NCBI GenBank assembly: GCA_965205865.1
Contig: CBDBHR010000028.1
Span: 384,001-448,000, forward strand
Length of the DNA: 64,000 bases
Direction: 5' to 3'
Origin: a bacterium
GTDB lineage: Bacteria > SAR324 > NAC60-12
Part shown: positions 15,935 through 35,739 of the stretch, one piece after another
How positions within the stretch are numbered: the stretch's first letter is position 1
How the letters are laid out: the number at the start of each line of letters is the position of its first letter
Notes under the pieces: model-generated
The model's database searches: none
The model's input: the letters and a program-made list of their open reading frames with translations, nothing else
What the model was told of the DNA's origin: nothing
Translations under genes and position numbers: made by a program

Positions 15935-16129
15935 AACCTTTTTTTAAAAAAGAGTATCGGGATTCACTCGTTTCGTGAAAGTATTTGAATATGTTCGGAA
16001 AATCTTATAAGAATATTGACCGGATGTCTGATCCGGTATTTGAATCAAAACAGGCGATCGATACATGTCTTGCAGACAATTACAGCTTTGTTGCCTGAAT
16101 GAAGTTCTGATCAAAGTAGTTTCGATTCC

Positions 16130-16711: not shown

Positions 16712-16804
16712 TACCATCTCGCCACCACAAACTCTTTGACCCGTCAACGCCGATCTCGCCGGAGACCGTTTATGAGATCGTCAGTGATTATGCCTCTCCG
16801 AAGA

Positions 16805-19579
16805 CTACAACCGTTCGATACGGACTCCGTCACCGAGTTCGAGATCATCCAGAATCTGCTTCAGTTCCATTTCCATGTTCCGCGCAAACTGTGAATCGAC
16901 GCTTACCGAAAGCTCGATACCCACCCTGAGATCGTCTCCCGAACGCAGCTTAGGCAGGATTTTGGTTCCCAGCCGGTTCCAGACTTCGGGGGGCACGGTG
17001 CCGGCAAGCCGGAGCTTTGTTTTCCGACCTGCCTGCAGCGCGCAGGCGGCAGACGAATTGTCCGCAACCGGTTCAGAGTCGGGTACCGGCTGCTGTTCCG
17101 GACCGGGTGGTGGTTGCGTATGTGGCGGATCTCCGGGTGTCGCTTTGAGCGCTTCGGCTCTGGCCTTGGTCACCAGGAAGACGTTCGTCTCGAAAGCCAC
17201 CTCTTCCACATGGACCGGCTCCGCGTACCAAAGTCGCTCGAAGCTACCATCGTCCCCGGTACCGGATGCCAGGCCGAAGTCGCCGCGAGCCACGAACTCG
17301 ACGACCTGCCGGCGCAGGATTGCGTCGGGATCGATCAACCTCGTCAATGCTCCATTGAGAAAGCTCTGACGCAGACTGGTTAGAGGCCAGGCCCCGCTGT
17401 CTTTGAATGCGGGTGGCCAATGGCGGTCAATGTAACCGGCACCCACGTTTTCGTTGAGCAGGGCTTCGGCCTTCAACGCGGCAATGATCCGTCCACAAAG
17501 CGTTTCGCTGGCGCTGGAATGCCCGGCTCCGAGATCGATGATCCTCAATCCCCGCTTCTCCTGCCTGTCCCCCAGCGCTATGAAGCGATAGCTGGCCCAC
17601 ACTTCCTCCCTGGCTGCTTCAAGGGAGTCTCTGACCCATGCCTCGACTTCCCGGAGATCTGCGCGCTCATATTCAGTGCCGAGAACTCCCTGGGATACCT
17701 CGTACCTCACGCGTTTCCAGGCGAGCCACAACTCGACCTTCCGGCGAAGCTCCCGCCCCGGTTTCCTCACGCACCAGACCAACGAGCCCGGGTACAGCCT
17801 AGGCGAAGTGCCACGTTCCCTGGTCCAATGGCCAATGCGTTCCGCGATTTCGCCGTCGTCCTGCCATTCGGTTTCGGGATCGAGAACGATCAGGGAGAGT
17901 CGCGGAGAATCCTGGACCGCGGCGCTGTCCTCCAGGAAGAAAGCAAGCGGGAGGCTCGTCCCGGATTTGAACTCGCTCTCGACGAGCTTGCGTACCGCCG
18001 GATTTATTTCCGTTTCTTCGTCCAGGGAAGCCTGCCGGTCACTGACGACTTTCTTCAATGTCGCCTGGTGGTGGATGCGATAGCCGTCCGTGCCGACCTT
18101 ACGAATGAAGAACCCGGACGTCTCCAGAGCCGTTGCGGCGTTATCGATGGTGGTGGTCTCGACCTCGGGTTCGCCGAGGGCGAAGCGCAATTCCGGCAGG
18201 TGCGCCACCTTGTCCACCTGTCCGCCGGAGGACTCGAACAGGATGGCCGCTCCCACGCGGCGATGGACGTCTCGCAGAGCTCCCGAAGTATCCACGTCCA
18301 GGGATCTGGCATGCGCTATCGGTCCCGCGATGTCGGCATCGATGGCAACGTCGAGCCGGGTTTCACCCAGCTGACCTAGGACCACGGCCCGGAACTCGGG
18401 TACGTCCAAGGGAGCCGATCCCAGCGTAATCAGTGGCTCGTTGCGCGCTTTGTGGAATTGCTCGCGAGCCGCCCGGGAAATCCATTGCGCCAGCATGGCC
18501 AACGCCCCCCGGGTCTGCTGGAATTGGGCCAGGGCGCGCCATTTCCGTTGAAAGACCGAAAGGGTCGCGGGGTGGAAGGGATAGCAAGCCTCGAACCGGC
18601 TCCTTAAAAATTCTCTGGCGCCGCTTTCCGTTGTTGCCGTGTCGACTGCCAGCCACTCCGGGGGAAGACGGTTGGATCGTTCGAAGCACCAGTCCGCATA
18701 GCTCCTGGCAACCTTCCTGCGTACGCGAACGTTTCCGAGATCCTGGAACAGCCGCCGGCGCACCACCTCGCTGATTTCGGATTCGTCATTGGCGATCAGG
18801 TCTTGGGCTACGCGGCGGATCACTTTGGTGATCCGCTCCTGCCACTGCCGGTCCCAATCGGTCATTTCGACCTGGCTGCGTGGCAGGCTGATCACCGCGG
18901 CTGCCCGCGTGGTTCCAGTGATGGCTACGGTCAGGTTCTGCATGAAAGCGTGGAAGCTTTCCGCCATATCCCGGTGGCGATTGATAAAGTTGAGCACCTC
19001 GTCGAAGAGTAACAGTACGGGCGCTTCCGCGGCCCTGAAGACGTTTCCCAGCGCCTCCGTGCCCGGCGGAGTATTATGCGCAGCGCTACCGAGCGCGGCA
19101 ACTCCGCGATCACCGGCCAGTTGACGAGCCAGATCAATCCAGGGAGTCTCCCGTCCCTCTCTCGGGTCCCAGGCATTGCCGACGAACACTGCGACGCGAG
19201 TGGAGGGGATTTCCGTTATTCCGGCCTTCTTCAGGAGGTCCGACACGCCGGGGATTTTGAGGCTGTCCGCACCGGCGTTGGCCAGGTGGTAGAGCGCGGT
19301 GAGCGCGTGCGTCTTGCCACCACCGAATTGAGTAACCAGAGTGAGGACCGGGGCCGTGTTCCCGGTTATACCGGAAAGGCGCCTCAGCGTCATGCCCGCA
19401 TGCTCCCGCAAGGCGCGCGTGAAGCAGGTGCGGGAAAAGAACTGCGCCGGGTCACTGTAATCTTCAGGTGCGGTTCCGGCGACTACCTGCTCGAGGGCGA
19501 TGGCAAATTCATCCGGACTGAAGGAGCGACCTTCGCGTACCTCTTCGCGGAGGGTAACATTTTTGTACCAGGGTTGCAT
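16805..19579 (-). CDS. DUF499-family AAA+ ATPase (core of restriction-like system)
   Basis: LVTQFGGGKTH Walker A, LLFDE Walker B, YPFHP, FQQTRGAL. Confidence 0.9.
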   Translation of the reverse strand: MQPWYKNVTLREEVREGRSFSPDEFAIALEQVVAGTAPEDYSDPAQFFSRTCFTRALREHAGMTLRRLSGITGNTAPVLTLVTQFGGGKTHALTALYHLANAGADSLKIPGVSDLLKKAGITEIPSTRVAVFVGNAWDPREGRETPWIDLARQLAGDRGVAALGSAAHNTPPGTEALGNVFRAAEAPVLLLFDEVLNFINRHRDMAESFHAFMQNLTVAITGTTRAAAVISLPRSQVEMTDWDRQWQERITKVIRRVAQDLIANDESEISEVVRRRLFQDLGNVRVRRKVARSYADWCFERSNRLPPEWLAVDTATTESGAREFLRSRFEACYPFHPATLSVFQRKWRALAQFQQTRGALAMLAQWISRAAREQFHKARNEPLITLGSAPLDVPEFRAVVLGQLGETRLDVAIDADIAGPIAHARSLDVDTSGALRDVHRRVGAAILFESSGGQVDKVAHLPELRFALGEPEVETTTIDNAATALETSGFFIRKVGTDGYRIHHQATLKKVVSDRQASLDEETEINPAVRKLVESEFKSGTSLPLAFFLEDSAAVQDSPRLSLIVLDPETEWQDDGEIAERIGHWTRERGTSPRLYPGSLVWCVRKPGRELRRKVELWLAWKRVRYEVSQGVLGTEYERADLREVEAWVRDSLEAAREEVWASYRFIALGDRQEKRGLRIIDLGAGHSSASETLCGRIIAALKAEALLNENVGAGYIDRHWPPAFKDSGAWPLTSLRQSFLNGALTRLIDPDAILRRQVVEFVARGDFGLASGTGDDGSFERLWYAEPVHVEEVAFETNVFLVTKARAEALKATPGDPPHTQPPPGPEQQPVPDSEPVADNSSAACALQAGRKTKLRLAGTVPPEVWNRLGTKILPKLRSGDDLRVGIELSVSVDSQFARNMEMELKQILDDLELGDGVRIERL

Positions 19580-19581
19580 GG

Positions 19582-21279
19582 CTATTTCTCTGTATTGGTC
19601 GGGTTGAGCGACTCCGCGATGCGGTTGAGTTTCTCGGCGATCTCCGGGTGGATCTCATCCTTATGCATTTCACTGGCCAACAGGTACAAATCCTTCTTTA
19701 GCGTGCTCATGCCCGGATTCTCCAATACGGGATCCTCTAACAGCGGAACCAGGAATTCGGTGCTTGCTTTGACTCGCACGAGTGATACGTGATCTCCAAA
19801 GAGATCAGTGCCCGGTGGTACCTGCCTCCAAAACACGTCTTCGATTTTTTTCTCCATCAAAGGGAAATTCACGAATCGTTTGATGACCTCCGGTTGCAGG
19901 AGATAGTTTTCAATCTCGTAGCGACGCCAGCGTAAGACTGCCAGACCCGCGCGCGTCGTCTCCTCATCCGGCTCGTCTCGATTGTCACCATCGAGAAGGC
20001 AGAGCGCTCGCATCTCTGGAAAGACCGCATGCATGGCGAAGAAGTGCGCTCTCGCCTCGTTGAGACTGCGCCCGCCGAGCCAGTGGACAACGGCCCTTTG
20101 GAAGAAACGCTGAGCCGGATGATCGAGGATTCGCGACCATTCGGTCAGAATCTTTTCATCTGACTCTCCCTCGACGTAAAGCACGGCACCAACTTCCTTG
20201 GCAAGTAACAGATCGGTGGTGGTGACTCGCTTGAGCGCCTCGCGCAGCTGATCGCGCTGCGTTTTGCTGGAAAGCGGGCGTGGAGAGTGACCGAAGAAGC
20301 CGATCACCCGGGCCGGTTCCGTGGCATCGAGAACAACCTCGGAATGCGTAGCGACGACGATTTGCCCGCCGCGCTCGCGAGCGACTTTGCGGACCAGGTC
20401 GTACACCTGCTTCTGCAGGATGACGTGCTGGTGGGAATCGGGCTCATCAAGGAGGATCACCGTGGCAGGACGGGCATACAGAAACGCAAGCAGGAGAAGC
20501 ACTTGAAGCGTTCCACTCCCGACGTTGGAAAGGTCCAGCGGCCGTGTATGGTTTGGTTCCCGGTATTCGCAGACAATATAGGGCTGAGCCGGCGAATAGG
20601 ATGGCTGGAGCAATGTAAACCTGAAGAGTTCGTGAATGTATTTTTTCAGATCCTTCCAGCCTTCTTTGTTGGTTTCCGCGATTTCCCAGAGGAGATTTCG
20701 CAGAATCTCGCCCGGCCTCCCCTGGCCTACAAGCAGGTTCTGCATGCCTTGGTCACGGCGTGGTTCATCCCGTTCGATCCCCGAGAGCGGAGGAACGTGG
20801 ACGATATCGAGCTTCTCAGCAGCTGGTGGTGGAAAGTTGAGGATGGCTTCGCGATCGAGAGTTTTTGCTTGCTGAGGCCGCACGTAAACCAACTCCGGAT
20901 TGGCGTATTGAAACTCGAGACCACAGCTCCACGCCTCTCCGTTCGATTCTCCTTCGACGATGATTTCGATCAAACGTGGTATTCCGGGCCTCTCTCCGGA
21001 GACTCGCCGGTCCTCCCACAAAAGGTTCATCTCGCGGAGAGGCACAGGGGTAAAATCGGCGCGCGTGATAGCGACGCCGGATCGTCTGACTGCCTTGCTC
21101 TTCTTGTCTCCTTTACGTTGAGCAATCCAGCGGTCGAGCCCCAGCTTCCAGGTTACGATTCCCTGAAGCAAGGTGGACTTTCCCGCGTTGTTCGGACCGG
21201 CAAGGACGACGGAGTCGGCCAGCTCGAACGGGTGCTCACGAAATCGTTTGAAATTCTTGATTGTGACGCGTCGGATCAT
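19582..21279 (-). CDS. ABC-type ATPase fused to TOPRIM-like domain (OLD/PARIS-like nuclease)
   Basis: GPNNAGKS, LLDEPDSHQH, LYVEGESD, LLDGD, RRYEIENYL; likely start MIRRVTIKNF. Confidence 0.8.
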   Translation of the reverse strand: MIRRVTIKNFKRFREHPFELADSVVLAGPNNAGKSTLLQGIVTWKLGLDRWIAQRKGDKKSKAVRRSGVAITRADFTPVPLREMNLLWEDRRVSGERPGIPRLIEIIVEGESNGEAWSCGLEFQYANPELVYVRPQQAKTLDREAILNFPPPAAEKLDIVHVPPLSGIERDEPRRDQGMQNLLVGQGRPGEILRNLLWEIAETNKEGWKDLKKYIHELFRFTLLQPSYSPAQPYIVCEYREPNHTRPLDLSNVGSGTLQVLLLLAFLYARPATVILLDEPDSHQHVILQKQVYDLVRKVARERGGQIVVATHSEVVLDATEPARVIGFFGHSPRPLSSKTQRDQLREALKRVTTTDLLLAKEVGAVLYVEGESDEKILTEWSRILDHPAQRFFQRAVVHWLGGRSLNEARAHFFAMHAVFPEMRALCLLDGDNRDEPDEETTRAGLAVLRWRRYEIENYLLQPEVIKRFVNFPLMEKKIEDVFWRQVPPGTDLFGDHVSLVRVKASTEFLVPLLEDPVLENPGMSTLKKDLYLLASEMHKDEIHPEIAEKLNRIAESLNPTNTEK

Positions 21280-21401
21280 ACGGTACCTCCGTACGGCCAG
21301 TAGCATGACCGATTGACGGAAAATTCGTACGGGATGAATGCGCAACCCTCCCGGACCTCTTTGCGAAGGGTAACGTTTTTGTACCAGGGATCAAGGGTCA
21401 T
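21276..21401 (-). other. 41-aa linker ORF: diverged DUF499 5' start followed by a DUF1156 3'-end remnant
   Basis: MTLDPWYKNVTLRKEVREGCAFIPYEF has 18/23 identities to the DUF499 start; 21283-21306 encodes MLLAVRR in another frame versus the DUF1156 end MLLAVPK*; its stop overlaps the next ATG (ATGA). Confidence 0.8.
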
Positions 21402-21442
21402 GTTTTCTCCTGTTCACTTGTTGTTTGCCGACATTTCCGCAG

Positions 21443-21928
21443 CTACCCGACCCGGCACAGATCGTTCCTACCAAGCAATCTCCTGTGCGTAGATCTGAAT
21501 TCCTTGTTCGGGTTCTTTTCCGCCTTCGTTGAATAAACTTTTCCTCCCGGATTGTCTACCAGGTTCTTGTTCCTGAAGTCTTTTTGCAATTTTTCGTCAT
21601 TCGTGTACAGCAAACGGGCACCACTGAGCTGAGCCAGGGCAATAACATGCGCATCATTTGATTGGCATAGACCCTCATTTTTGAGTTGCTCTGCCCTATC
21701 GTTGACCTTTTGATCGTTCTCAGTTCTAAACATCCCAGAAAACTGGGCTTCTTTACGCCATTTTCTAAAGTAATCTGAACGGTTATCGAGCTCCACGAGA
21801 AGTTTGCCTCCGGCCACCAGCCGGCCACTTCTCCCCTTTTCGACCCACTCAAAAAATTTCTCCCCTGCCGGACATGGGCTGGAACTGAACACCTCATGGA
21901 CGACGTTTGTATCGACGATTGCGCACAT
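21443..21928 (-). CDS. PIN-like domain protein
   Basis: IVDTNV, NDAHVIALA, LYTND acidic motifs. Confidence 0.7.
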   Translation of the reverse strand: MCAIVDTNVVHEVFSSSPCPAGEKFFEWVEKGRSGRLVAGGKLLVELDNRSDYFRKWRKEAQFSGMFRTENDQKVNDRAEQLKNEGLCQSNDAHVIALAQLSGARLLYTNDEKLQKDFRNKNLVDNPGGKVYSTKAEKNPNKEFRSTHRRLLGRNDLCRVG

Positions 21929-21951
21929 TTCTCAGATCCTCACCAGCTATT

Positions 21952-23310
21952 CTATCGCTTCCATAGCGACCTCTTTACCTCTTCCATGAAGAACCGACGG
22001 TAACCCTTGGGCGCGCCCAGGATGTTCCCCTCTTCGTCGATTCGGAGTGAGTGAATGCGAACGTCCAACTCTCCACGTTTAAAATACAAAATAGAAACGT
22101 CATCGGGTTTCAAACCAGTCGTGCCGTCACGAACGTCCATCCGCACCCGGTCGAGCAAATGGTCGCTGTGCGTTTCGACTACCAATTGGCGCTCCGCACC
22201 GGCGACCTGACAGAATAAACTCCCCAGTGCGGCTTGGGCGCTCGGGTGGAGATGCACTTCCGGTTGCTGTAAAAGGAACATGGACGACGCATCCTGGCGC
22301 AGCAATTCGGTTATCAAGGGTAGCACCTGACTGACGCCGTAGCCCACATCGATCAGGTTGCGCGGGGGACCCTTCAGCCGGCCATCAAATTTCCTGACCT
22401 GCACCTGAAAGGGCTCACTCTCCCTTTTCCCCAAGGGTTTGATAGAAATTTCATCGAAGAGACCTGCGGTTTTCCCGAAGTCTTCGAGACTCTTCTTTAG
22501 AGTTTTCCACATTTTTTTGTTCTGGAAATAGACGTTGGCAAGATAACTGGGAACATAATTGCCTTCAGGATCCGGTGCGGTGCGGGAGGGATCATAGGTG
22601 CGGTGCGGTTTGAACCTGATCGGCGCACCGGCATACAATGCTTGATTTTGATTAAATGTGGACATGGATACGTCAACAATCAGATTCAATTCTTCCGTGG
22701 TGGGTAGATCAATACCATCCAATGGGGCGACATTTTTGATTAATTCTTTTTCATCGTCTCTTAGGCGATTCAGCAGAAATCCAATAGTGAAATCGAAAGT
22801 AGGAATCCGGCCACCATCAAACTGAGTGTGCAATTCGGGCAACTTTATTTGCCAACGGCTATTCGCTGTGCTGAAGCAAAGCAACCACGATCTATCATTT
22901 TGAAGACTGTATTCCAGCCAATGATTCTTTCTCGAAAGTCGTCTTCTCATCGGAAAGGGCACGGTTCCCTTCTTTCCGAAATCCACCTCAAAGCGACAAG
23001 AACCGGTAGCCACATCCATGCCCTTTATGGGGTGTCTGGGAGTGAATTCGAACCCCGCCTCAAAAGTACTTGCCCGGCTTCCTCTTCCACCCCGGTAATG
23101 GGCAATTTCGTCAAAGCTGCCCAGGTCATACGGCTCCTTTTTGAAATCGGGAATGTCGTGCTGGAAGGCAGTGAATAATAGTGCCCGGATCAAAGCCATG
23201 AAAGAGGTTTTTCCAGTGCTGTTTTCGCCTACGAGCAAAGTCAGGGGCGCCAGGCGAGTGGTCTGCTCTTCACGGAAGCAGCGAAAGTTTTTCAGCGTTA
23301 TCTTCTCCAT
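21952..23310 (-). CDS. ABC-type (AAA_15/AAA_21-like) ATPase, partner of the PIN gene
   Basis: GENSTGKT, VGYGVSQ, LLQQPEVHLHP, VETHS. Confidence 0.85.
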   Translation of the reverse strand: MEKITLKNFRCFREEQTTRLAPLTLLVGENSTGKTSFMALIRALLFTAFQHDIPDFKKEPYDLGSFDEIAHYRGGRGSRASTFEAGFEFTPRHPIKGMDVATGSCRFEVDFGKKGTVPFPMRRRLSRKNHWLEYSLQNDRSWLLCFSTANSRWQIKLPELHTQFDGGRIPTFDFTIGFLLNRLRDDEKELIKNVAPLDGIDLPTTEELNLIVDVSMSTFNQNQALYAGAPIRFKPHRTYDPSRTAPDPEGNYVPSYLANVYFQNKKMWKTLKKSLEDFGKTAGLFDEISIKPLGKRESEPFQVQVRKFDGRLKGPPRNLIDVGYGVSQVLPLITELLRQDASSMFLLQQPEVHLHPSAQAALGSLFCQVAGAERQLVVETHSDHLLDRVRMDVRDGTTGLKPDDVSILYFKRGELDVRIHSLRIDEEGNILGAPKGYRRFFMEEVKRSLWKR

Positions 23311-23323
23311 GATCTCTCCTTTT

Positions 23324-26278
23324 TCACTTGGGAACTGCCAGCAGCATCGCGTCTAAAAGTCGCTTTTCTTCGCTGCCACGAGGGTACAGGGCGGAAAGCG
23401 CGTTGGCAAGTCGCAGGAAGTCGGGGCCATGGTCCTGTTCGGCATCGATCAGCTTCCGCAGCGCGTTGGAGTGACCACCGGACTGCAAGAGCATGCCTGA
23501 GTGCACGCGGTCCAAGGTGGTGGCCTCGAGGGAATGAAGTTCGACCTCGCCATCAAGGATGGTTTTTCTTCCACGGCGGCGGTTTCTTGATTTCTCCGGA
23601 GCGTCCATTTCGGGAAAAAGCGTCATCTGCGAGTTGGCTTCCGGTTCATATTCGATCCAGTCGGCTGCTGCGCCTGCTCCGTCCTCGCCAAATAGTTTTC
23701 TGGCCCGCTCGGACACCGGCAGCAGGCGCACCACGCCTTTTTCCTGCTCGATGATACGACCGGTCCAGACGTCGAGATCGATGCCCATGGGTTGGGCGAA
23801 ACGACGCACGACGTCGAAGGGGAGATTGAATCCCCGGGGCGCCACCTTGGTAACCGTTTCTTCTTCCTCCTCTTCCTGTTTAGCATTCTCTTCGGAGGTT
23901 GCCGTACTCTGGAGGGTCCAGAGGAAGAGAGCTGTCAGGCGGGCGTCCTCCTCCAGCGCGCCGACCAAGCCGTTACGCGCCTGCGCTTCCGCCGTGCCAA
24001 GCACCTGCTGGAGCGCCGCGCGACCGACGACTTCCCAGACTTTTTCCAGGTACTCGGGCAGGCCGACCGTGCGGCCCTCGGCAGTCTCCACCGCGCGGTA
24101 ACGACTGAAGATTTCGAGCGCCGGGCCGATGCAGGCGAAGACCAGGTCCGCACCTCGGATACCTTCGCACTGCAAGCGCTCCATCCAGCCTCCCACACGA
24201 ATCGGAAGCTCGCGCAGGACATCGCCCCAGTCCCCGACTACGGCATCCTCGGATCGCGGGCGGCAAATGAGATGGACGCTGGTGGCGAGAGCCGCCGAGT
24301 CCTGCGACCTCAGTCGACCTACCATCTCAGTAGCAATTGGCCAGGAGCCAGTGATGGTCCAGCCACCTAGGATCATACCCGAAAGCAATGCCTCCCAACC
24401 TTCTGTGGTCTTGTGGGCGAAGACGACCGAGCCGATGCCATCTTCGTTTAGAATGCGGTGCCCCTCAGTGAACGTCTTCGCCATCATCTCCTCGAACCAC
24501 GCACGATCTTTCGGTCGTCCATCGTTAGTCTTTGTCTTGTCCTGTACTATCTCGCGTGCCTTCGGTGAGAGTGGATTGTCCGGGTCGAAATAGTCACGTA
24601 GCAGCGAGTAACCGGGTAGTGTTCGTTTGAACCAGACTAAGAAGAAGTCAGCAAGGTCCGCATATGGAATCGCGTCGTAATACGGCGGGTCGGTGAACAA
24701 AACTCCAGCGGATTGGTCGGGAAGTGGGTGATTCGTGGTGTCGGCTGATTGAACTTGTCCGGAGACTAATCCCAGTGAGCGACCCTCAAGTATATAAACT
24801 ATCGAGTTGAGAGCACTGTCCCAGCTTCTCGATGCGGTTGCCAGACAATTCGATTCGCCAAAATCCCAGATGATTGGCAAAGCCTGCCGAGGGATCGCAT
24901 GCTTGACCTCCTCCCCAGAAGCCAGCCATGCAGAAGTAGATGAGCCGCCACCGGCGATTCGGTTTACAGCTATGGCGAGCAAACACCTTATTGATTCCTC
25001 CAACGCTGCGACGGACTGACTCAACGCCACCAACGCCACCTTCTGCCGCGCCGTGAACAAGTCACCCCACTGTAGCATGCCGTAGCGTTGCACGTTAAAG
25101 CCCAACGTCCCAATCGGTGGCAGCGGCTCATCCGGTATCGGGCAGAGTCCTTGCTTTCCCCTATGTTCCCATTCCTCAATAATCTGTACCACCCGCGCCT
25201 GCGCGCGGCGCACCGCTTCGTAGTCCGCGTCGGTAGGAAGACGATAATGTCTTCCGGGCTGTCCGGGCTGGAGCATCACCACAGCTGTCATGAAAGCCCC
25301 GCCTGTCCGACGGTCCTGTTCATCGAAGATAACGTCGGCTCCGCCCCGTTGGGCAGCGAGCTGTGCTCGCACCCGTTCGGGTTGCAATACGATGCCACAA
25401 CACAGACACGTCGCCTTCGCTCGTGTCACGGTGCCTCCATGCACCTCCCTATCCGTTGTCGGCTCGAACACTTCGAACTCGACATGCGGGGGAGCGCCTT
25501 CGGACCGTTCGATCCGGTATCGGAGGGCACGCTTGCGCTTGGGCTTCTTGCACAGCCAGAATGAACGCATGAGCGGGATCTCCGCGCCGCAGTTGGGCGC
25601 TTCGCAGCGCACCGTGCGCGCCCAGAGATAGGCAATCGGGGTGGCGCCATCCGGGTCAGGTGGATAGAGGTCGCCCAGTTCCCGCTTGGCTTTCCGTTTG
25701 ATCTCGCCACCGACTTTGCGCAGTTCCTCGGCCAGTCCCGGACCGTATCGTGGGATGTCCTCCAACATCACCTTGAGGATCAGGCAGGCCACCGGGTTGA
25801 GATCACTGGCGAAGGCTTCACAGCCAAGCCGCAGCGCTTCCAGAGGGATCGAACCCCCACCCGCGAATGGATCCACCACCAGCGGTGGCTCCTCACCATG
25901 GGCCGCCTTCACCAGGGCACGACTCACACCGAGATAGGTGCGATTCGCAGCAAGGTCCCAGTTGGCAAAGTCGGCGATGAACCGCAACAGTACCTTACGC
26001 AACCCCTCGTCCGTGGCATCCGGACGGCAGCCTGCCACCTGTGGCAAGAGCCTGCGTGCCTCGTCCTTGAATTCTGGCGGACATTGCGGATCACACGGGT
26101 CCGGCAGTAGTAGCGCGAGCAGCACTGCCCGACACGAAGCCAGCGGTCGCCGCGCCCACCACAGGTGCAACGTCGAGGGATGTCCATGCCGGATCGATTT
26201 CTCCCGCACCGCATGCCTGGAAACTTCGGCAATGGGAAAGTCCACCTCCGCCAGTCGTTTGCATTCTCTGGGGATCAC
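23324..26278 (-). CDS. DUF1156 adenine-specific DNA methyltransferase
   Basis: LHLWWARRPL, DPFAGGGSIPLEA, TDPPYY, Cys-rich finger; likely GTG start MIPRECKRL at 26278. Confidence 0.92.
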   Translation of the reverse strand: MIPRECKRLAEVDFPIAEVSRHAVREKSIRHGHPSTLHLWWARRPLASCRAVLLALLLPDPCDPQCPPEFKDEARRLLPQVAGCRPDATDEGLRKVLLRFIADFANWDLAANRTYLGVSRALVKAAHGEEPPLVVDPFAGGGSIPLEALRLGCEAFASDLNPVACLILKVMLEDIPRYGPGLAEELRKVGGEIKRKAKRELGDLYPPDPDGATPIAYLWARTVRCEAPNCGAEIPLMRSFWLCKKPKRKRALRYRIERSEGAPPHVEFEVFEPTTDREVHGGTVTRAKATCLCCGIVLQPERVRAQLAAQRGGADVIFDEQDRRTGGAFMTAVVMLQPGQPGRHYRLPTDADYEAVRRAQARVVQIIEEWEHRGKQGLCPIPDEPLPPIGTLGFNVQRYGMLQWGDLFTARQKVALVALSQSVAALEESIRCLLAIAVNRIAGGGSSTSAWLASGEEVKHAIPRQALPIIWDFGESNCLATASRSWDSALNSIVYILEGRSLGLVSGQVQSADTTNHPLPDQSAGVLFTDPPYYDAIPYADLADFFLVWFKRTLPGYSLLRDYFDPDNPLSPKAREIVQDKTKTNDGRPKDRAWFEEMMAKTFTEGHRILNEDGIGSVVFAHKTTEGWEALLSGMILGGWTITGSWPIATEMVGRLRSQDSAALATSVHLICRPRSEDAVVGDWGDVLRELPIRVGGWMERLQCEGIRGADLVFACIGPALEIFSRYRAVETAEGRTVGLPEYLEKVWEVVGRAALQQVLGTAEAQARNGLVGALEEDARLTALFLWTLQSTATSEENAKQEEEEEETVTKVAPRGFNLPFDVVRRFAQPMGIDLDVWTGRIIEQEKGVVRLLPVSERARKLFGEDGAGAAADWIEYEPEANSQMTLFPEMDAPEKSRNRRRGRKTILDGEVELHSLEATTLDRVHSGMLLQSGGHSNALRKLIDAEQDHGPDFLRLANALSALYPRGSEEKRLLDAMLLAVPK

Positions 26279-26349
26279 GGATGCTCCTCCGTCCATTGGA
26301 CGAGCACTTTGGCGGTGTCGATCGCGTCCCGGTATTCCTGCCCATATTC
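26275..26349 (-). pseudogene. 3' remnant of a HEPN-like gene overlapping the DUF1156 start
   Basis: EYGQEYRDAIDTAKVLVQWTEEHP* resembles a HEPN C-terminal helix; GTGA stop/start overlap. Confidence 0.4.
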
Positions 26350-26739
26350 CGAAGTGTGATTTTTAGAATTACAAGGAATCCAATACTCCAATACAATTGC
26401 TTTTTCTCTATCGTATCTTGCAAATCTACGAGGAGTCATAGTCGTGTTCTTTCAAATAGAGGATGTCGCACCGTACCTCCAACCGCTTTCGCTCGCCTGC
26501 TTCCGGCTGGAAATCTATCGCGATCTCATTCGGGATCGGAATGAATGTGCGATATTTCGAGAGAATAGTCGAGGTGATCCTAGTACCGCCTCCGGACGCG
26601 GCACTAACAAGTCCAGGACAAAGAATGTCGTAGTAAAGGTGGAAACGCCTTGAGTGATGTTGGAATATGAATATGACCTTTCGGCCACCCCAGACCACTT
26701 CTGTTGAATGCGGCTGTAGAAAGAAGTCTCCTTTTTCGC

Positions 26740-27155
26740 GCGGGATCTTTCTCGTCATCTTCGTTGGGCCGGTCGACGATTAATTTGTTATCACGAGTTA
26801 CCCGTTCCTTGCGAAGTACGGGGCGCCGCCGGTTGTCCTGAGAGAAAACGATCTCATATTTCCACTGGGCTTCTGCTCTTGTATCCTGCAATTCGACATG
26901 CACTTCTATGTTCGAATATCGCCGTGCCGCCAGGCATCGAATAGCGCTCACCCCACGCCGTCGTAGAACCGCGTCCTGAAAACCTCCTCCGGTCGAAGCG
27001 AGATCACGCAGGAACCGGAAAACATCGAGGAAATTGGATTTCCCCGACGCGTTGGGACCTACGAGAAAGACACGATCTTCTATGGCAACCTCGACATCGA
27101 GAAAATTTTTCCAATTTCGCAGGTGGAGTTTCCTGATTTTCAGGTTATCGCTCAT
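26740..27155 (-). pseudogene. truncated ABC/AAA ATPase (N-terminal part only)
   Basis: LRNWKNF, GPNASGKSN; recognisable similarity ends at EDDEKDPAR, no Walker B. Confidence 0.75.
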
Positions 27156-27170
27156 TGCTTTTCCTTGTGA

Positions 27171-27440
27171 TCATTGTGGCCCATTGTACTTTAGTGGAGG
27201 TTTCCGTACTTGCATTGGTTGGGTCAGGGCGTTGACCTCGAGCCAGTAGTGCTGCACCTTGGTGACCTGATTCCAGGGGAAGCGGGCGGGATTTCTGACC
27301 GGTTCCTGAAGTTCCGGGGCACTCGCGCATTTGGTGACCACGTAGAGCCAGTAGCAATCAGGACGGTCCTCGGCGACGCGCCGTTCATTCGGCGTGAGCA
27401 GGATGGTGCCGACCAGTTGCTTATATTCCTTGGGAATCAC
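27171..27440 (-). other. 89-aa chimeric linker ORF: DUF1156 start (10 codons) fused in frame to a duplicated helicase/DUF3883 C-terminus
   Basis: GTG-IPKEYKQLV versus MIPRECKRLA; 27208-27411 matches 31441-31644 at 190/204 nt by manual alignment. Confidence 0.88.
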
Positions 27441-28672
27441 TTGCATTTGGGTTCCTTCCACAAGCGTACGATGAAGCGGTTCTCTTCTTCGATCAGGTCA
27501 GGCTCGGTTCCGTTGTGGTCCCGCATGCCGGGGATGATTCTATTCCGTACCCCCATCCCGCGATTGTCCACGTATCCGTAGTCGCGCATCACATTGACTA
27601 AGGCTTGGTTGCGGGCGTAGCGCATTCCCACCTTCATTCCTCCGGTCGTCACCGTCTTGGGCAAGCGTCCGGGGCTCACGATCTCCAGACGGTTAGAAAA
27701 GATGGCGAGCATGACGTCCGCCCCCGAGATGCTGTAGTCTCGGTGAACCAAGGCGTTTCCCACGGCCTCGCGCACCACCGCTTCGGGGAATTCCCAGCGG
27801 TCGACCCGGCGTGCGCTTTCAAGCCGAGCGGAAGGCATCGTATTGCGCCGTACGAAATCCCACGCCTGATCAACCAACCCCGGTTCTACCAGCACGCCAT
27901 CGAGAGCGCCAAGCGGAACCAGCGGTCCCCTGAGGTCTTCGTCCGCGCGGGTCGCGTAGTCCGCTTCCTCTCCGGGGTAGCAGACGGCCCGGATGCCCGA
28001 TTGAGGGAGAGGGCGTGCGGGATTCCTCCCGAACAACAACGTACCATCGATGGTTGCAGCCGTTCGCCCCGCTGAGGTCGTCGCCAAGTCCAGGTTCAGC
28101 AACAGCGTCTGCCACCCTTTAGCATCGCTGTCACCCGGAGCGTCACTTCCCAGGACTCGAACGAAGTAGTCGCGCAGGCGACGGAGGTCGAGCGTGTCGA
28201 TGGCGGTTCCCCGCACTGGTTTAAGACCATACCGCAGCCCCCCGGACTGTTGGTAGAGACGTTCTTCTTCCTCGCGAGTCGCATTGCGCGTTGTGGTTCC
28301 CACTCGAACCTTGGTGACCCAGGCCGACCCGTGCTTCGCTTTATACGGCTTGTCCGGCGCGTCCGCCGGCAGTGACACGATACCAACTTCTTTTGCGTCG
28401 TCCCAACATATTGTCTCCCAGTACGGGATTGTGGCTGGTTGAACGTGCGTTCGAGCCACCTCCATGACCCACTCCTCAGCCCTGGCCCGGTCCCGGGTGA
28501 GGCCGCTGACGGTCTGATCGTTTTCGACACCCAGGAGTATGTGGCCGCCTTCCAGATTGAGGAGCGCGACCATCTCTCCCGCCAGTTTGTCCTGAGGGAT
28601 GTTGTCACGTTTGAACTCGACGCCGGAGTTCTCGCCGTTGCGGATCAATTCGATCAATTCAGTTTTGTTCAT
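27437..28672 (-). CDS. Schlafen/AlbA_2 domain protein with RecG-C/HATPase-like domain
   Basis: GENSGVEFK, ALLNLEGG, REAVGNALVHRDY, LEIVSPG. Confidence 0.85.
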   Translation of the reverse strand: MNKTELIELIRNGENSGVEFKRDNIPQDKLAGEMVALLNLEGGHILLGVENDQTVSGLTRDRARAEEWVMEVARTHVQPATIPYWETICWDDAKEVGIVSLPADAPDKPYKAKHGSAWVTKVRVGTTTRNATREEEERLYQQSGGLRYGLKPVRGTAIDTLDLRRLRDYFVRVLGSDAPGDSDAKGWQTLLLNLDLATTSAGRTAATIDGTLLFGRNPARPLPQSGIRAVCYPGEEADYATRADEDLRGPLVPLGALDGVLVEPGLVDQAWDFVRRNTMPSARLESARRVDRWEFPEAVVREAVGNALVHRDYSISGADVMLAIFSNRLEIVSPGRLPKTVTTGGMKVGMRYARNQALVNVMRDYGYVDNRGMGVRNRIIPGMRDHNGTEPDLIEEENRFIVRLWKEPKCK

Positions 28673-28678
28673 GGTCGT

Positions 28679-28718
28679 TCTCTCACGATTTTGTTTGACG
28701 GATGGGGTGGGAACCCTC
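28679..28718 (-). repeat. 36-bp hairpin element, copy 1 (fills most of the intergenic gap)
   Basis: gagg-gttcccaccccatccgtcaaacaaaatcgt-gagaga. Confidence 0.7.
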
Positions 28719-31407
28719 AGAATCCGTATTTCAGTCTGCGAGTCTCAAATGCGTCCTTGCCTCCTTCGAGAATTTCCTCAACCATCTCCCGTACCGGACG
28801 CGCATCGATCGAACCCATATGATTGGGGTCGATGTGAGCATTTCCTCCATCCGCCTCTCCCAGAGCAGTAAGCCCTAGGATCAACTCCGCGTCTCCAAGC
28901 ACCGGGATGTTGGCGTTGTGGGTGGAGAAGATGAACTGACGCCGGCGTTTCTCCTCCCGCATCCTGGGGACCACGCCTTGGGTGATGAAGCGGTTGTCGA
29001 GGTCGTCCTCCGGTTGATCCACGATCAAGGGAGCGTCCGATTCGAGCAGCAGGAGCAGCAGTACCGCGGTTGCTTTCTGTCCCGTCGAGAGGGCTTCGAG
29101 CGTCTGCCATGACGGTGGTTCGCCGGCAGGCGCCGTGTTGAGACGGATTGACGTGGTGGGTAATAACTCCAGTTCTTCAATGCGCATCAAGACCTCTGGA
29201 GATCCTTCGGCAAGACGTTTCGCTTGAGCCGGTGGAATTGCGTATGCCCGGTGAACGGCTTCAGCCCCCATCCTGCAACACTCGACGAAATGTGGCAGAG
29301 AAAACTCCTTCTTCTTAAGGGCATCAATCACCTCGAAGAGACGGCCTCCGATCTCGTCACGCAGCACCCCGAACAACGGTTCTCGATCACCCGCTGCGGC
29401 GACCTCCACCCGGACGCGGTCATGCAGATTTCTGCCGACATTCTTCGCTGCCCGGTCAAGGAGACGGAATTCCTCCGCCTTGAGGTCTTCCCACTCTGCG
29501 AGCAGCGTACGACGCCGTTCCGTGTACTCCTTATTCAAGCGCTGTAACAGGGACGCGCGTTCTCGCAGTGGGCGAAGGCCTTCGATTTCGCGTCGCAGAC
29601 GGATGAACTCCTCGCCGTCCACCGCCGACTTCCGCAGTTCACGCAGGATTCTCTCGTAACCGGTCTGTACTTCGCGCTTGCGCTCATTCCACCGGCTGCG
29701 GATCTCATCGATCCCGCTATCAGCTTGCGCAAGCGCTGCCTCGAATCGGCTCACCAACTCCTCGAGGTCGAGGCTCAGACGTTCAAAGACGTCATTGGCG
29801 GCCGCGAGAATTTCCTTGCCCGGTAGATCCTCAAGGGCCCTTGGCGATAAGAACACGCGGTCGATGGGGATCTCCTGGCGGAGGATCTCCAGACACTCAC
29901 GGAGTGGCTCCAGACGCTCGGGAATCGAACCTAGTACGCGCTCTTCGCGGACGAGGAGGCTCTGCTCACGCAGCCGGTCTTCGAGTCCTGCTTCTCGAAA
30001 GCGTTCAATCGTCTCTTCGAGTCCGGGGAGAGTCGCCAAGCGTTCTTCGATCTGTCCGAGTTCGGTGCTTACTTCCAGCATCGACCGTCCGGTCTTCTCC
30101 AGGTCCCGGCGTAAGTCCACTTTGCGCCTGGACAGCGACGAGTCGCGTTCGACAAAGCGATCGAGCAAGCGTGTGAGTTTTTCACGACTCCTGGTGAGCT
30201 CGGAGATTTCGTGCTGCCCGTACACCTCGACACGGGGGAGTATCTCTTCGGGGAGCAGGTTCGAGACCTGGCCGCTTTCCTCGCGAACCACCGGAGGGTT
30301 CGGGACTGTTCTTTCGATCCGGTACTGTCTATTTGTCGGGCGGTGGGAGCGGACAAGGAGCGAGACTTTTGTCCCGCCCCGGAGCACGTGGCGCACAATC
30401 CCCTGGTGGGCTTTGCTAGCCTCTTCTCCAATGGGATCTAATCCGAGTACGTACCTCAGACTCTCGATGACCGTCGACTTGCCCGCGCCTCGCCCACCAA
30501 TCAGCACGTTCAGGTTCGGGTTGAAGTGAAAAGCCACGCCGTCCAGAAATCCGCCTTGCCAGGTCAGCGAGATGAGTTCAGCATGTTCTTCAGGCGGGGG
30601 ATCGCCGTTCAGACGAATTCTTGATTCCGGATCGAGAAAAGCCTGCCGCAGGCCCTCGATGCCAACTTCGGACATCTTGATCCAGCACATGGCCGAAGGA
30701 TCTTCCAGGTCCTCGGAATTCACGACGTCCTTTGCGTTGACCACGGCCACCGCCAGATTATCCCCCGCTGCGTGGAGTCGGCGGTAATCGGCGTTCTTGT
30801 TTTCAACGATCTGTAACGCACTTCGGGGCAATTCCTTGACAGGCCCCGGAATCTGAATTGCGAGCAGGTCTTTGCTCTGCCATGCTTTGATCCGGGCCTT
30901 TCCATCAAGGACGCTGAACAAACCGCTGTTGTTGGTTGCGTGCGCGGCGATTGTGATGCCACCCTGTGCTCGGACTTTTTCAAGTATTTCGACGAATGAC
31001 AGGCTCGAAAGGTCCGAAGAGGACTCTGTCACGTAAATCCCAAAATCACCAAGATACCGTCCGAGTGTCTCTTCTTCGGTGTCTGGTGAATAGATACAAA
31101 GAACGTGAACGCCTTCAGAGGAGGTAAGTTCAAATCCTGGAAATATCGTGATTCGATAGCCAGTAGCAGCGTTGCGGAATGCTTCAACTCCACTCACGTT
31201 ATTGTGATCAGTGATCGCGAGCGCCGAGACCCCAATTTCGGCGGCTTTCGCGACAATGGCATTGGCGTGAGATTCGACATCGCCTGCAGTCTCTTTGCCT
31301 CGAAACGTTTCGTTGTAGTGGTGGGGATTCACTTGGAGAGAGCAACGGTGAAACTCCGCGCCTCTCGGTAACTTGCTTGATTTCTCACTACAGCCATTGA
31401 AATTCAC
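28717..31407 (-). CDS. PHP-domain + SMC-like ABC ATPase (TrlF/Ppl-like)
   Basis: AITDHN, GVHVL, IAAH; GGRGAGKS; LSTGQ, IVDQPEDDLDN; likely GTG start overlapping the helicase stop. Confidence 0.85.
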   Translation of the reverse strand: MNFNGCSEKSSKLPRGAEFHRCSLQVNPHHYNETFRGKETAGDVESHANAIVAKAAEIGVSALAITDHNNVSGVEAFRNAATGYRITIFPGFELTSSEGVHVLCIYSPDTEEETLGRYLGDFGIYVTESSSDLSSLSFVEILEKVRAQGGITIAAHATNNSGLFSVLDGKARIKAWQSKDLLAIQIPGPVKELPRSALQIVENKNADYRRLHAAGDNLAVAVVNAKDVVNSEDLEDPSAMCWIKMSEVGIEGLRQAFLDPESRIRLNGDPPPEEHAELISLTWQGGFLDGVAFHFNPNLNVLIGGRGAGKSTVIESLRYVLGLDPIGEEASKAHQGIVRHVLRGGTKVSLLVRSHRPTNRQYRIERTVPNPPVVREESGQVSNLLPEEILPRVEVYGQHEISELTRSREKLTRLLDRFVERDSSLSRRKVDLRRDLEKTGRSMLEVSTELGQIEERLATLPGLEETIERFREAGLEDRLREQSLLVREERVLGSIPERLEPLRECLEILRQEIPIDRVFLSPRALEDLPGKEILAAANDVFERLSLDLEELVSRFEAALAQADSGIDEIRSRWNERKREVQTGYERILRELRKSAVDGEEFIRLRREIEGLRPLRERASLLQRLNKEYTERRRTLLAEWEDLKAEEFRLLDRAAKNVGRNLHDRVRVEVAAAGDREPLFGVLRDEIGGRLFEVIDALKKKEFSLPHFVECCRMGAEAVHRAYAIPPAQAKRLAEGSPEVLMRIEELELLPTTSIRLNTAPAGEPPSWQTLEALSTGQKATAVLLLLLLESDAPLIVDQPEDDLDNRFITQGVVPRMREEKRRRQFIFSTHNANIPVLGDAELILGLTALGEADGGNAHIDPNHMGSIDARPVREMVEEILEGGKDAFETRRLKYGF

Positions 31408-34400: not shown

Positions 34401-34841
34401 AAGCTTGAGTTCACGGACCAGCAGGCCTGCCATGATGGTCTTACCCGCCCCCGCATCGTCGGCGAGCAGGAAGCGCACGTTGGGCAGCTTGAGGAGGTGC
34501 TCGTAGACCGCTTCGAGTTGATGGGGCAGAGGGTCCACGCGCGAGATGGAAAGCCCGAAATAGGGGTCGAACTCGTGGGCGATACCGAGTGCATAAGCCT
34601 GAAGACCGATTCGCAGAAGCCGTCCGTCGCCGTCGTAGGAAAGAGTGGAGTCAGCGATGCTCAGGTTCGAGATATCAGCCGACGTCAGTGTAACCCTTCG
34701 GAATCGTTCCGATTGCTGACCAACGAGACCGGCATCCCAGGTGCCGGATCCGTTCGTGCGCACGGTTTCCACTCGCATCGGTTCATTGAACTGCGGGCCA
34801 GTCAGAACCTGTCCTTCCCGGATGGGGCTTTCGGTATCCAA
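31404..34841 (-). CDS. SNF2-family helicase with C-terminal DUF3883 PD-(D/E)xK nuclease
   Basis: LADDAGAGKT, VDEAH, TATPH, EQRMGRIHRYGQ, GYDV...IEVK. Confidence 0.93.
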   Translation of the reverse strand: MDTESPIREGQVLTGPQFNEPMRVETVRTNGSGTWDAGLVGQQSERFRRVTLTSADISNLSIADSTLSYDGDGRLLRIGLQAYALGIAHEFDPYFGLSISRVDPLPHQLEAVYEHLLKLPNVRFLLADDAGAGKTIMAGLLVRELKLRGLVERVLVVCPANLTFQWQRELKEKFDEKFLVQKGGDIREQFGVNQWLEHKQIITSLDLAKRANILPGLRQAHWDLVIVDEAHRMSARDETHKSMRYKLGELLRDSTDHLLLLTATPHKGDPGNFTLFLQLLDRDAYADVKSIREAMNRRRAPFYLRRAKEAMVYFPERLQDGTWTAKPVFTKRIPRTAAFTIDGPEFELYQQITRFVKRQSARAAAQEDDPRARAVGFLMSLYQRRLASSTFAMRRSLENRARRLQDGLKRAQELVRIAPPDLPDPEDLEELEDAERERLERLLEAITLAGNAHQVREEITELRVLAEEAKAVEGAGREAKLKRLREIMRNEGFFDRPDQRLLLFTEFKDTLGHLMEHLKAWGFSVGCIHGGMKPGSQDEPGTRLYAEQQFREGVIQILVATEAAGEGINLQCCHILFNYDIPWNPNRLEQRMGRIHRYGQRNDCLIFNFVATNTIEGQVLQRLLAKLQEIRDALDDDSVFNVVGEVLPSAHVERVLREYYSGKLGDADLEDRLLKDVDEGHFRTICQTALEGLATKKLDLEMLTERRARAQERRVVPETIARFIKEGARNARLDLKPVEGLEHTFDPGRIPSCLKKYEREPGWKLPQLATRYPRLSTDRDAADEHNLEWVTPGHPLFESLRRHGLDLARDAFASGACFHSLGHEAPARLDFYRAQVVDGLGHVIHERLFTVELRDGRQPRLRDPDILGNLSPAVVPASDLPDVTSLSQATNWLTEHALIPFIDEVRKERLSEVERIAEHVELSLTEVLQRLDQEIGRAAEDLQRQVSGAEGRLSQAEARHDEALARRDRRRQELAQQRALTLQGVQRLASILVLPHPEADSPEVRRLRPSAETEMIAMRLVMEHEKVRGRQVYDVHEKNLGYDVTSLDVESGELRLIEVKGLSATTGTILLTPNERRVAEDRPDCYWLYVVTNCASTPELQEPVSNPARFPWHQVTKVQHYWLEVNALTQPMQVREHTPPFGGKT

Positions 34842-35182
34842 TGGAGCTTTCCTTTCCTCAGATCTTTATTTTCAAAAAGTTCAGGACCCAGATTCTTGTA
34901 AGAGAAATGAATCCCCTTCACAAAAAGGAGGGACAATATTACCAGGGAAATATAACACGGATTCTATCGGGTTAACAATCGGAAACCATTTAACGTTATT
35001 TTCCCAGGTCTGAAGGCCGAAGTCTGAGACAAAATGCTGGAAACAAGAAATAATTCTGCAACGTTAAGGATTGTAAGAACCCGTTTTGTCAAATAATACA
35101 TTTGGCTGTGATTGTGATCGCTTTCCGGGTCTACCAGGCTGCCGTCATTGCGCAAGAGAATAAGAGACTATGATACGAGAGA

Positions 35183-35540: not shown

Positions 35541-35574
35541 ACTCCCTTATCTCATCTCTACCCCTTTCCTTGTT

Positions 35575-35684: not shown

Positions 35685-35739
35685 GGAAATATGAACTTAA
35701 ATTCCCAAAGTCACAGGCCTGACCCCGATTCCCTGATTT

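Follow-up and report, generated by a model that had tools for sequence, protein, structure and literature searches.

Stubs of core genes between cargo sets in both slots of a predicted Hma operon from a SAR324 bacterium

Hma systems, for which type-1 DUF499-centred BREX-related is the new name (Nucleic Acids Res 2026, PMC12839542), commonly harbour further genes between their core genes. Embedded cargo was reported in 62.7% of 1,485 Hma systems, with 376 cassette types and the designations HEC-01 to HEC-09 (Payne et al. 2024 preprint, doi 10.1101/2024.01.29.577857), insertions were found in 66.5% of Hma loci (Microb Biotechnol 2024, PMC11232893), and OLD-ABC, PIN, HEPN and Schlafen proteins have been described as 'backup effectors' (PMC12839542). 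Anti-phage activity has been demonstrated for HmaA of Halomonas (PMC11232893), that is, for another locus than the one considered here. In their available portions, the published Hma studies catalogue embedded genes and test some of them for defence; they give no insertion route, and Payne et al. offer only the idea of a 'genomic sink' (doi 10.1101/2024.01.29.577857, PMC11232893, PMC12839542). The word 'recombination' is absent from the Payne preprint and from PMC12839542; PMC11232893 uses it a single time, in the legend of a figure. Here we describe a locus at positions 16805-34841 of a 64,000-nt stretch of DNA, hereafter the window (contig CBDBHR010000028.1, positions 384,001-448,000, assembly GCA_965205865.1; SAR324, NAC60-12), in which stubs of the core genes separate successive cargo sets.

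By its domain content, the minus-strand locus is a predicted Hma operon (type-1 DUF499-centred BREX-related, restriction-like) with cargo in both intergenic slots: the three core families lie on a single strand in the order A-B-C, and the gene order and families given in the initial annotation of the window were borne out by Pfam and PADLOC. Core families, order and strand are the same as in the published Hma or BREX-related systems, and the cargo belongs to the reported embedded types (ABC ATPases with TOPRIM or PIN partners, fused ATPase-TOPRIM, Ppl, Schlafen and HEPN). In contrast, the terminal stubs between cargo sets go unmentioned in the available portions of the Hma publications, and we found no description of them in the full-text literature, supplements not being covered. 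According to the accessible part of their preprint, Payne et al. dropped loci with pseudogenes and had at most three embedded genes per slot (doi 10.1101/2024.01.29.577857); this exclusion and this limit would hide arrays of the kind described below. Hma operons and their embedded cargo are already known; the scar footprint and its implication for insertion appear to be new and rest on ordinary recombination. We consider it likely that the slots took up cassettes repeatedly from related Hma operons, through crossovers between alleles, one homologous and one illegitimate, and without an integron-like mechanism.

Anatomy of the two scars

Slot 1, between hmaA and hmaB, holds a PHP-domain ATPase gene with a Schlafen gene, followed by the remnant of a HEC-01A-type ATPase gene. 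The scar between Schlafen gene and remnant (scar 1) consists of a diverged hmaB start fused in frame to a hmaA end (coordinates in Table 1); the joined pieces form one open reading frame (ORF) of 91 amino acids (aa), 27446-27171, and meet at CGG, which is common to both parents. The hmaA 3' end is repeated over 208 nt at 93% identity (27411-27204 versus 31644-31437); beyond these 208 nt, a diverged tail leads to the copy's own stop codon (27173-27171). In codons, 69 near-identical ones are followed by an 11-codon diverged tail. The piece was recognised by hidden Markov model (HMM) tiles with E values of 1.6e-24 and 2.1e-19 and, within the 91-aa ORF, by Pfam NOV_C (E 3.3e-6). The genome holds just two copies of the 208-nt hmaA end, the resident one and the scar, of which the first 50 nt are identical; their codon differences are 9 synonymous and 4 non-synonymous. 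The hmaB-start piece, in which a GTG at 27440 overlaps the Schlafen stop, is weak when taken alone: its score was reached by 4/300 shuffles in the comparison with the resident hmaB start, and the tile HmaB_1_40 gave no match to it. Directly upstream of the hmaA-end copy and overlapping the Schlafen stop codon lies 'ATGCAAGTGATTCCCAAGGAATATAAGCAACTGGTCGG'; the residues before the copy read 'VIPKEYKQLVG'. The piece aligns base for base with the real junctions of Schlafen stop and hmaB start in L025 and L040 (L numbers denote the related loci described below), and it also aligns with hmaB-start stubs that follow Schlafen genes in L009, L014 and L021.

In slot 2, between hmaB and hmaC, an ATPase gene and a PIN gene are separated from an OLD-like ATPase gene by a scar of three pieces (scar 2). 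The score of the first, which resembles the hmaB stop and the stretch behind it, was reached by 0/300 shuffles in a restricted comparison. The second is a copy of the hmaC start, aligning over 75 nt at 80% identity (21389-21315 versus 19573-19499), and the stub ORF to which it belongs (41 aa, 21401-21276) ends on a stop that overlaps the ATG of the OLD-like ATPase gene (ATGA). The third, a hmaB end, runs directly into the start of that gene; it aligns continuously with the junction of hmaB end and OLD start in L029 (score 73), and its score against the resident hmaB end was reached by 2/300 shuffles. Together with the alignments to relatives, the 208-nt and 75-nt copies bear out the junctions of a downstream-gene start with an upstream-gene end that had been claimed for both slots.

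A second genome of the genus, G001, carries the locus at the same chromosomal site (G001:C1:385800-395300; L088/L089), with a downstream flank collinear with that of the window. Its slot 1 contains the hmaA end with a scar-type tail, directly followed by an intact 383-aa HEC-01A gene, the gene of a 209-aa partner (HEC-01B) and hmaB, and represents the single-cargo allele that the initial annotation had proposed to look for in relatives; the PHP-ATPase gene, the Schlafen gene and scar 1 are absent from the G001 locus. Scar 2 is present in diverged form ('MTLDLWYKSPTHRKEVREGRAFIPKKLTVNR') and is therefore older than the split of the two species and was assembled twice independently. All core genes of G001 are broken (hmaA lacks residues 51-900, hmaB contains stops, hmaC is cut after 35 codons), and the HEC-01, ATPase+PIN and OLD-like cassettes are still open: in G001, the cargo has outlived its platform. 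The simplest history would start from an ancestral hmaA-HEC-01-hmaB arrangement, upstream of whose HEC-01 set the window lineage would have inserted the PHP-ATPase and Schlafen genes together with a hmaB start of foreign origin, whereupon HEC-01 would have lost its middle; alternatively, G001 may have lost the PHP-ATPase/Schlafen set by recombination between the two hmaA ends.

Identity between the window and G001 forms a mosaic, ranging from 47% to 96% in 150-nt windows, and these swings along the locus point to frequent recombination with other alleles. The PIN gene is 47-79% identical over its first half (21650-21950) and hmaB 49-65% over its middle (24500-25550, probably the target-recognition part), the neighbouring sequence being at 85-96%; these patches look like patchwise allele replacement.

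Terminal stubs in related loci

The related set comprised 80 loci from species-representative genomes, with HmaB as the query. With the window counted, 49 loci had a HmaB of at least 52% identity (same subfamily), and 32 lay at about 45% (distant subfamily). Both slots are hypervariable across the 80 related loci, the hmaA-hmaB slot ranging from an overlap (estimate -38 nt) to 7870 nt and the hmaB-hmaC slot from 9 to 7493 nt. In loci with an empty slot 1, the stop codon of hmaA and the start codon of hmaB overlap, forming ATGA or GTGA. The order A-B-C is kept in nearly all of the 80. L029 is rearranged or a double locus, in which hmaC is followed by a hmaB stub (residues 5-112), hmaB-OLD and hmaA.

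For the tile test, alignments of HmaA, HmaB and HmaC were converted into 78 HMM tiles of 40 residues and compared with 10,231 six-frame stop-to-stop pieces from all slots (246 kb). At the threshold of E<=1e-3, and with the complete second hmaB of L017 set aside, all matches were to terminal or near-terminal tiles and exclusively on the sense strand; the best antisense match had an E value of 0.02. Control flanks outside the operons (560 kb, 22,587 pieces) gave no tile matches except in L029, with its rearranged core genes, and L056, which has a second helicase. Scars were found in 10/49 subfamily loci (the window, L006, L009, L014, L016, L017, L018, L027, L038 and L075): pieces of the hmaA end in the window, L016, L017, L018 and L075, of the hmaB start in L009, L014, L016 and L038, of the hmaB end in L006 and L027, and of the hmaC start in the window and L027. 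Weaker terminal matches occur in L021 and L062, as do further copies in L009, which contains three hmaB-start stubs in addition to the real hmaB start. A possible hmaB-start stub upstream of the hmaA-end copy of L075 was too weak to be counted.

Two-piece scars of the kind seen in the window, here joined in one frame, connect a hmaB start with a hmaA end in L016 ('MLPKECKRLAEVD' followed by 'TMTQPMQVRE...') and L021 ('VIPASLGGWQEVD' followed by 'AMTRPMRVRE...') and a hmaC start with a hmaB end in L027 ('MDPWYKIATPCKELGEGRIS' followed by 'RIKADQDRGPDFL...MLLAVPR'). All scars that were mapped onto the ORF annotation fall at boundaries between different cargo sets: the hmaB end of L006 lies between an ATPase+PIN set and a 321-aa ORF, the scar of L027 between a 324-aa ORF and a MNT+HepT set, and the hmaB start of L038 between a Schlafen gene and a DUF3644 gene. 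Stub lengths vary, with 12-42 codons for the hmaB start, 17-80 for the hmaA end, 20 and 29 for the hmaC start and 7-65 for the hmaB end, and the microhomology at the junctions amounts to 3-9 nt. The L027 joint shows an exact 8-nt match common to hmaC and hmaB (GGGCGCTC); the L016 and L021 joints show imperfect short matches around 'LAEVD' of hmaB and 'LEVDA' of hmaA. Cargo genes are cut as well, namely HEC-01A in the window and in L025 (36 aa), a PHP gene in L014 and a Schlafen gene in L018 (111 aa), and since these remnants are cut at other places, illegitimate joints are not confined to the core termini.

Members of integrase or transposase families were found in 0/190 slot ORFs (145 sense and 45 antisense) of the other subfamily loci with a measurable slot. 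This result and the recurrence in L016, L021 and L027 support the earlier claim that related operons supplied 'gene end-cargo-gene start' units, which were stacked without a visible integrase. Terminal duplications had further been expected in homologous loci with several cargo genes; such duplications occur in nine loci of the subfamily besides the window but are not universal, as several multi-cargo slots lack them. A CAAGTG motif at cassette boundaries was considered and dropped, as lysine-stop codons and GTGA/ATGA stop-start overlaps at real junctions would account for it.

These loci and a set of 72 metagenome loci showed two further arrangements. L017 (L017:6472-12976) and the metagenome locus L118 (L118:12135-15152) have an additional complete hmaB in tandem; in L017, the first hmaB copy is frameshifted and then followed by a hmaA-end stub, so that an entire core gene has been stacked there. 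A NOV_C-like domain resembling the nuclease end of HmaA forms the end of slot 1 cargo ORFs of about 390 aa, two of them from the metagenome set (L121:929-2083, L140:8790-9983) and one from L068 (L068:8806-9963). They are a separate cargo family and no scar; the tile matches of L068 were not counted as scars because like matches in L121 and L140 sit in these proteins. Two of the three hmaB-start stubs of L009 are followed at a short distance by a GC-rich element of 46 nt that forms a hairpin (L009:8765-8810 and 9754-9799, copies 98% identical) and may be a REP-like or terminator-like repeat.

Possible routes of cassette gain

From the anatomy of the scars, their recurrence, the variable breakpoints, the microhomology, the lack of slot recombinase genes and the single-cargo allele we infer the following route of recombination, in which (i) each gain would involve one homologous crossover within a conserved core gene; (ii) the other end of the incoming DNA would be joined illegitimately, at a few bases of microhomology, near a core-gene terminus; (iii) a joint beyond the resident cargo would replace it, whereas a joint in front of it would keep the old cargo and add the new set; (iv) the additive joint would leave a stub of the downstream gene start, the upstream gene end or both between the cargo sets. 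Addition would be favoured when the length or the similarity of one incoming arm does not suffice for homologous recombination, which the short stubs would fit. Slot 2 would first have gained the ATPase+PIN set before a hmaC that directly followed hmaB, and then the OLD-like ATPase gene with seven hmaB-end codons, joined at hmaC codon 29. Slot 1 would have started with HEC-01, as is still the case in G001, and gained the PHP-ATPase+Schlafen set, which brought 12 hmaB-start codons along, the joint lying 80 codons upstream of the hmaA stop; the decay of HEC-01 would have been the last step. The stubs are short ORFs that retain the stop/start overlaps of the operon and may preserve translational coupling. 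Embedding in Hma, BREX, DISARM and type I restriction-modification operons is now used for defence discovery ('guilt by embedding'), and the stubs are direct footprints of this embedding. They point to alleles being exchanged by way of the conserved ends of the core genes, an illegitimate joint on one side leading to addition in place of replacement. Such footprints could be used to order cargo gains in time, to find cassette boundaries and to flag short 'orphan' ORFs as stubs rather than new genes.

Homology-facilitated illegitimate recombination, reportedly observed in naturally transformable bacteria by de Vries and Wackernagel and by Prudhomme and colleagues, both in 2002, shares with the proposed route one homologous anchor, one joint at a few bases of microhomology and additive integration. 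Its structural hallmark, continuous homology on one side and a microhomology joint on the other, is found in the scars, and the variable breakpoints and microhomology fit this route, which the initial annotation had listed as a possibility. Unlike those laboratory crosses, the present case is read from footprints in natural operons of uncultured bacteria. In the 'orphan' toxin-immunity arrays of rhs and cdiA loci, an old gene tip is displaced by an incoming tip together with its immunity gene. The likeness lies in stacked cassettes that each follow a leftover piece of the upstream gene, in one-sided homology, in old sets that are kept and decay, and in the lack of a known dedicated recombinase. 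The leftover 3' piece of the upstream gene has its counterpart in the hmaA-end stubs (the window, L016, L017, L018, L075 and, more weakly, L021) and the hmaB-end stubs (the window, L006 and L027). In contrast to rhs and cdi, where the variable unit is the C-terminal domain of a conserved gene, the Hma cargo is made up of separate genes and leaves the core proteins complete; in addition, there are stubs of downstream-gene starts, whole defence operons lie between intact core genes, and two slots of one operon are alike.

Several observations weigh against the proposed route. The stub lengths fall within 100 codons of the termini, which random illegitimate joining would not predict, so that selection, or failed homologous recombination on very short arms, must be invoked. 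No scars were found in the long multi-cargo slot 2 of L008, L009, L014, L023 and L075 or in slot 1 of L023, L039 and L062, and the scar-free slot 2 of L009, L014 and L023 holds three ATPase-partner sets end to end, that of L075 two. The tile test gave no stubs in the 32 distant-subfamily loci; short terminal stubs were also absent from the 72 metagenome loci (25 + 28 scanned slots, 83 kb; about 15 loci of the close subfamily), and stubs from two Planktothrix plasmid loci of isolates, all 108 matching records of the plasmid collection being below 60% identity. Every scar-bearing record is a metagenome-assembled genome, though several phyla and studies are represented. With 15 differences between them, the resident and scar copies of the 208-nt repeat resemble each other more than either resembles G001, and the assignment of donor and recipient therefore rests mainly on the tail and the adjacent cargo. 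Finally, in a check of the joints against public runs, that is, against short Logan contigs from runs of several studies, no contig among those listed bridges the hmaB'::hmaA' joint at 27411, and contigs end inside both repeat copies.

This last point, and an assembly of 30 contigs that is 91.9% complete with 3.7% contamination, would suit an artefact in which the assembly combined two strains that differ in their cargo into a single contig. We give this explanation almost no credence, because assemblers join at shared sequence and not at a 3-nt overlap of a diverged 35-nt hmaB stub with a hmaA end. Moreover, scar 2 recurs in the second assembly, from another species of the genus, two assemblies have the L009 and L014 stubs in common, and the same scar grammar is found in nine other records from several phyla. 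Run X2 has contigs into both hmaA tails, with 0 and 1 differing letters and comparable depths of 5.0 and 5.7, and one of this run's contigs (26139-27237) bridges the scar 1 tail into the truncated HEC-01A ATPase gene. In two other studies, contigs of runs X1 and X7 match 26219-26756 and then continue with different sequence, which was not found in G001; this suggests strains in which a different neighbour lies upstream of the filler before hmaB.

A local tandem duplication of slot and flanks within one genome, with later divergence and replacement of one cargo copy, would explain why the two hmaA-end copies are 93% identical, share their first 50 nt and are the only ones in the genome. It is nevertheless very unlikely, since the two cargo sets are of unrelated families, the stubs of hmaB and hmaC differ from the resident genes by 20-25% and are locally closer to alleles of other loci, the hmaB-end stub matches a L029-type junction with an OLD gene, and the synonymous and non-synonymous differences (9 versus 4) are as for divergence inside working genes. 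We regard as similarly improbable a site-specific, integron-like or transposon-driven capture with conserved gene termini as attachment sites. Cargo always occupies the same two slots in sense orientation, and the hmaB'::hmaA' joints of L016 and L021 lie at the same shared motif (hmaB 'RLAEVD', hmaA 'LEVDA'), as such capture would have it; against it, the breakpoints differ in all other scars, the 190 slot ORFs and the surroundings of the window's operon contain no integrase or transposase family, the boundaries share no inverted repeat or attC-like element, and the window has no tRNA gene. Attachment sites of the attC type, searched for as imperfect inverted repeats, were likewise absent from 16000-36000. 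Hma slots and integrons have in common promoterless, co-oriented cassettes in a fixed platform, a likeness of outcome only; in contrast to integrons, there is no integrase, there are no attI/attC sites and the joints vary. The 'integron-like array' of the initial annotation can be retained as an analogy of outcome only, because there is no fixed site.

A circular route is conceivable but unlikely. A fragment running from a hmaA end through cargo to a hmaB start would have circularised illegitimately, forming the hmaB'::hmaA' joint, and then integrated in the hmaA end in a Campbell-type fashion, leaving direct repeats. This would yield exactly the product observed, and a 22-nt imperfect direct repeat of hmaB stop, ribosome-binding site and ATG flanks the ATPase+PIN set. 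Over about 14 informative sites of the 208-nt repeat, G001 agrees with the resident (r) or scar (s) copy in the order r s r r s s s s s s r r s s, mostly resident-like at the first four sites and mostly scar-like after them, as a crossover inside the repeat would give; the pattern is not clean, however, and comprises only these few sites. No circle or excised form was seen, the public contigs compared show no such joint, and the linear one-sided route is expected to give the same structure.

Beyond the one-sided route that we favour, Hma slots might form a recombinase-free platform in which 'upstream-gene end-cargo-downstream-gene start' is the mobile unit between phyla, the RLAEVD/LEVDA motif of hmaB start and hmaA end is a preferred crossover site for stacking, and in-frame stub ORFs are selected to carry ribosomes across the joint to the next cassette. 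We consider this combination doubtful; if true, the scars would serve as functional elements of an accretion system rather than being debris.

Operon, cargo and flanks

Table 1. Features of the Hma locus (window coordinates)
Feature	Position	Strand	Details
hmaA	31404..34841	-	SNF2 helicase with C-terminal NOV_C nuclease domain, PD-(D/E)XK-like; PADLOC HmaA E 1.3e-169 (residues 7-1092); Pfam SNF2-rel_dom, Helicase_C, NOV_C
Slot 1 cargo, first set, gene 1	28717..31407	-	PHP-domain ABC ATPase (Ppl-like); Pfam PHP, AAA_21, SMC_N; PADLOC Ppl E 6.7e-42
Slot 1 cargo, first set, gene 2	27437..28672	-	Schlafen/AlbA_2 + HATPase_c_4 protein; Pfam
Scar 1, hmaB start	27412..27446	-	Diverged, about 12 codons; ATG at 27446; reads 'MQVIPKEYKQLV'
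Scar 1, hmaA end	27171..27411	-	Last 80 hmaA codons and stop; in-frame fusion to the hmaB start
Slot 1 cargo, second set, HEC-01A-type remnant	26604..27155	-	ABC ATPase, 183-aa ORF; PADLOC HEC-01A E 7e-52, profile positions 1-141 of 382
Probable DUF4276 (HEC-01B-type) partner remnant, slot 1	26522..26692	-	tblastn with L009 DUF4276 protein, E 2e-5, small search
HEPN C-terminal remnant, slot 1	26275..26340	-	Last ~20 codons; tblastn with end of L048 HEPN protein, E 1e-3, small search
hmaB	23324..26296	-	DUF1156 N6-adenine methyltransferase; PADLOC HmaB E 1.6e-109; Pfam DUF1156 E 9.2e-23
Slot 2 cargo gene 1	21952..23310	-	AAA_15/AAA_21 ABC ATPase (HEC-03-like together with PIN gene); Pfam, PADLOC
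Slot 2 cargo gene 2	21443..21928	-	PIN-domain protein; Pfam PIN E 3.5e-7
Scar 2, hmaB stop	21402..21420	-	hmaB stop and ribosome-binding-site-like stretch (cf. 23330-23308); local alignment
Scar 2, hmaC start	21315..21401	-	ATG and 28 codons; tile HmaC_1_40 E 6.7e-11
Scar 2, hmaB end	21284..21306	-	Last 7 hmaB codons 'MLLAVRR', stop lost; 8 nt filler before it
Slot 2 cargo, OLD-like ATPase	19582..21279	-	587-aa ABC ATPase, AriAB/DUF4435-like C-terminus (HEC-04/OLD-like); Pfam AAA_21/AAA_15; PADLOC AriAB E 4.3e-20
hmaC	16805..19579	-	DUF499 AAA+ ATPase; PADLOC HmaC E 3.9e-92; Pfam DUF499

Start sites were assigned from context. The PHP-ATPase ORF is open to 31479, and its probable start, as read from the sequence, is the GTG at 31407 that overlaps the hmaA stop (GTGA); comparison with relatives places the probable start of hmaB at a GTG at 26278. 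Homologues of the PHP-ATPase are found in slot 1 of L009 and L040, and those of the Schlafen protein in slot 1 of L009 (two copies), L014, L021, L025 and L040. The HEC-01A remnant and the N-terminal 140 aa of the intact G001 protein share 89% identity, and the homology of the remnant stops near residue 141 (about 26737). The DUF4276 remnant has no Pfam match, and the stop of the HEPN remnant overlaps the probable hmaB start (GTGA). With DUF4276 and HEPN remnants in the 440 nt before hmaB, slot 1 retains traces of at least three cargo generations. In slot 2, the AAA_15/AAA_21 ATPase has homologues in slot 2 of L006, L009, L014 and L023, and the PIN gene in L006, L009 and L014. The OLD-like ATPase, the ORF of which is open to 21345, has a homologue directly after hmaB in L029; it had been annotated as an ATPase-TOPRIM fusion, of which the ATPase part is well recognised, whereas the TOPRIM-type C-terminal domain is weakly supported (DUF4435, E 0.045).

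The operon is flanked by housekeeping genes (glycosyltransferase, ECF sigma factor, peptide ABC transporter), and domain scans detected no integrase family in the operon or the adjoining flanks. Just upstream of hmaA, a 102-aa fragment of a HpcH/HpaI aldolase (35183-35491, minus strand; profile positions 63-136 of 221) may mark the insertion point of the operon. The GC content climbs from about 0.45 to 0.60 at 16500. Elsewhere in the genome, distant paralogues of the DUF1156 methylase and the SNF2 helicase (35-47% identity), one of them with an internal stop, occur at G000:C30:1366282-1368882, G000:C28:242249-247001 and G000:C29:869266-871536 and may represent additional Hma-like systems.

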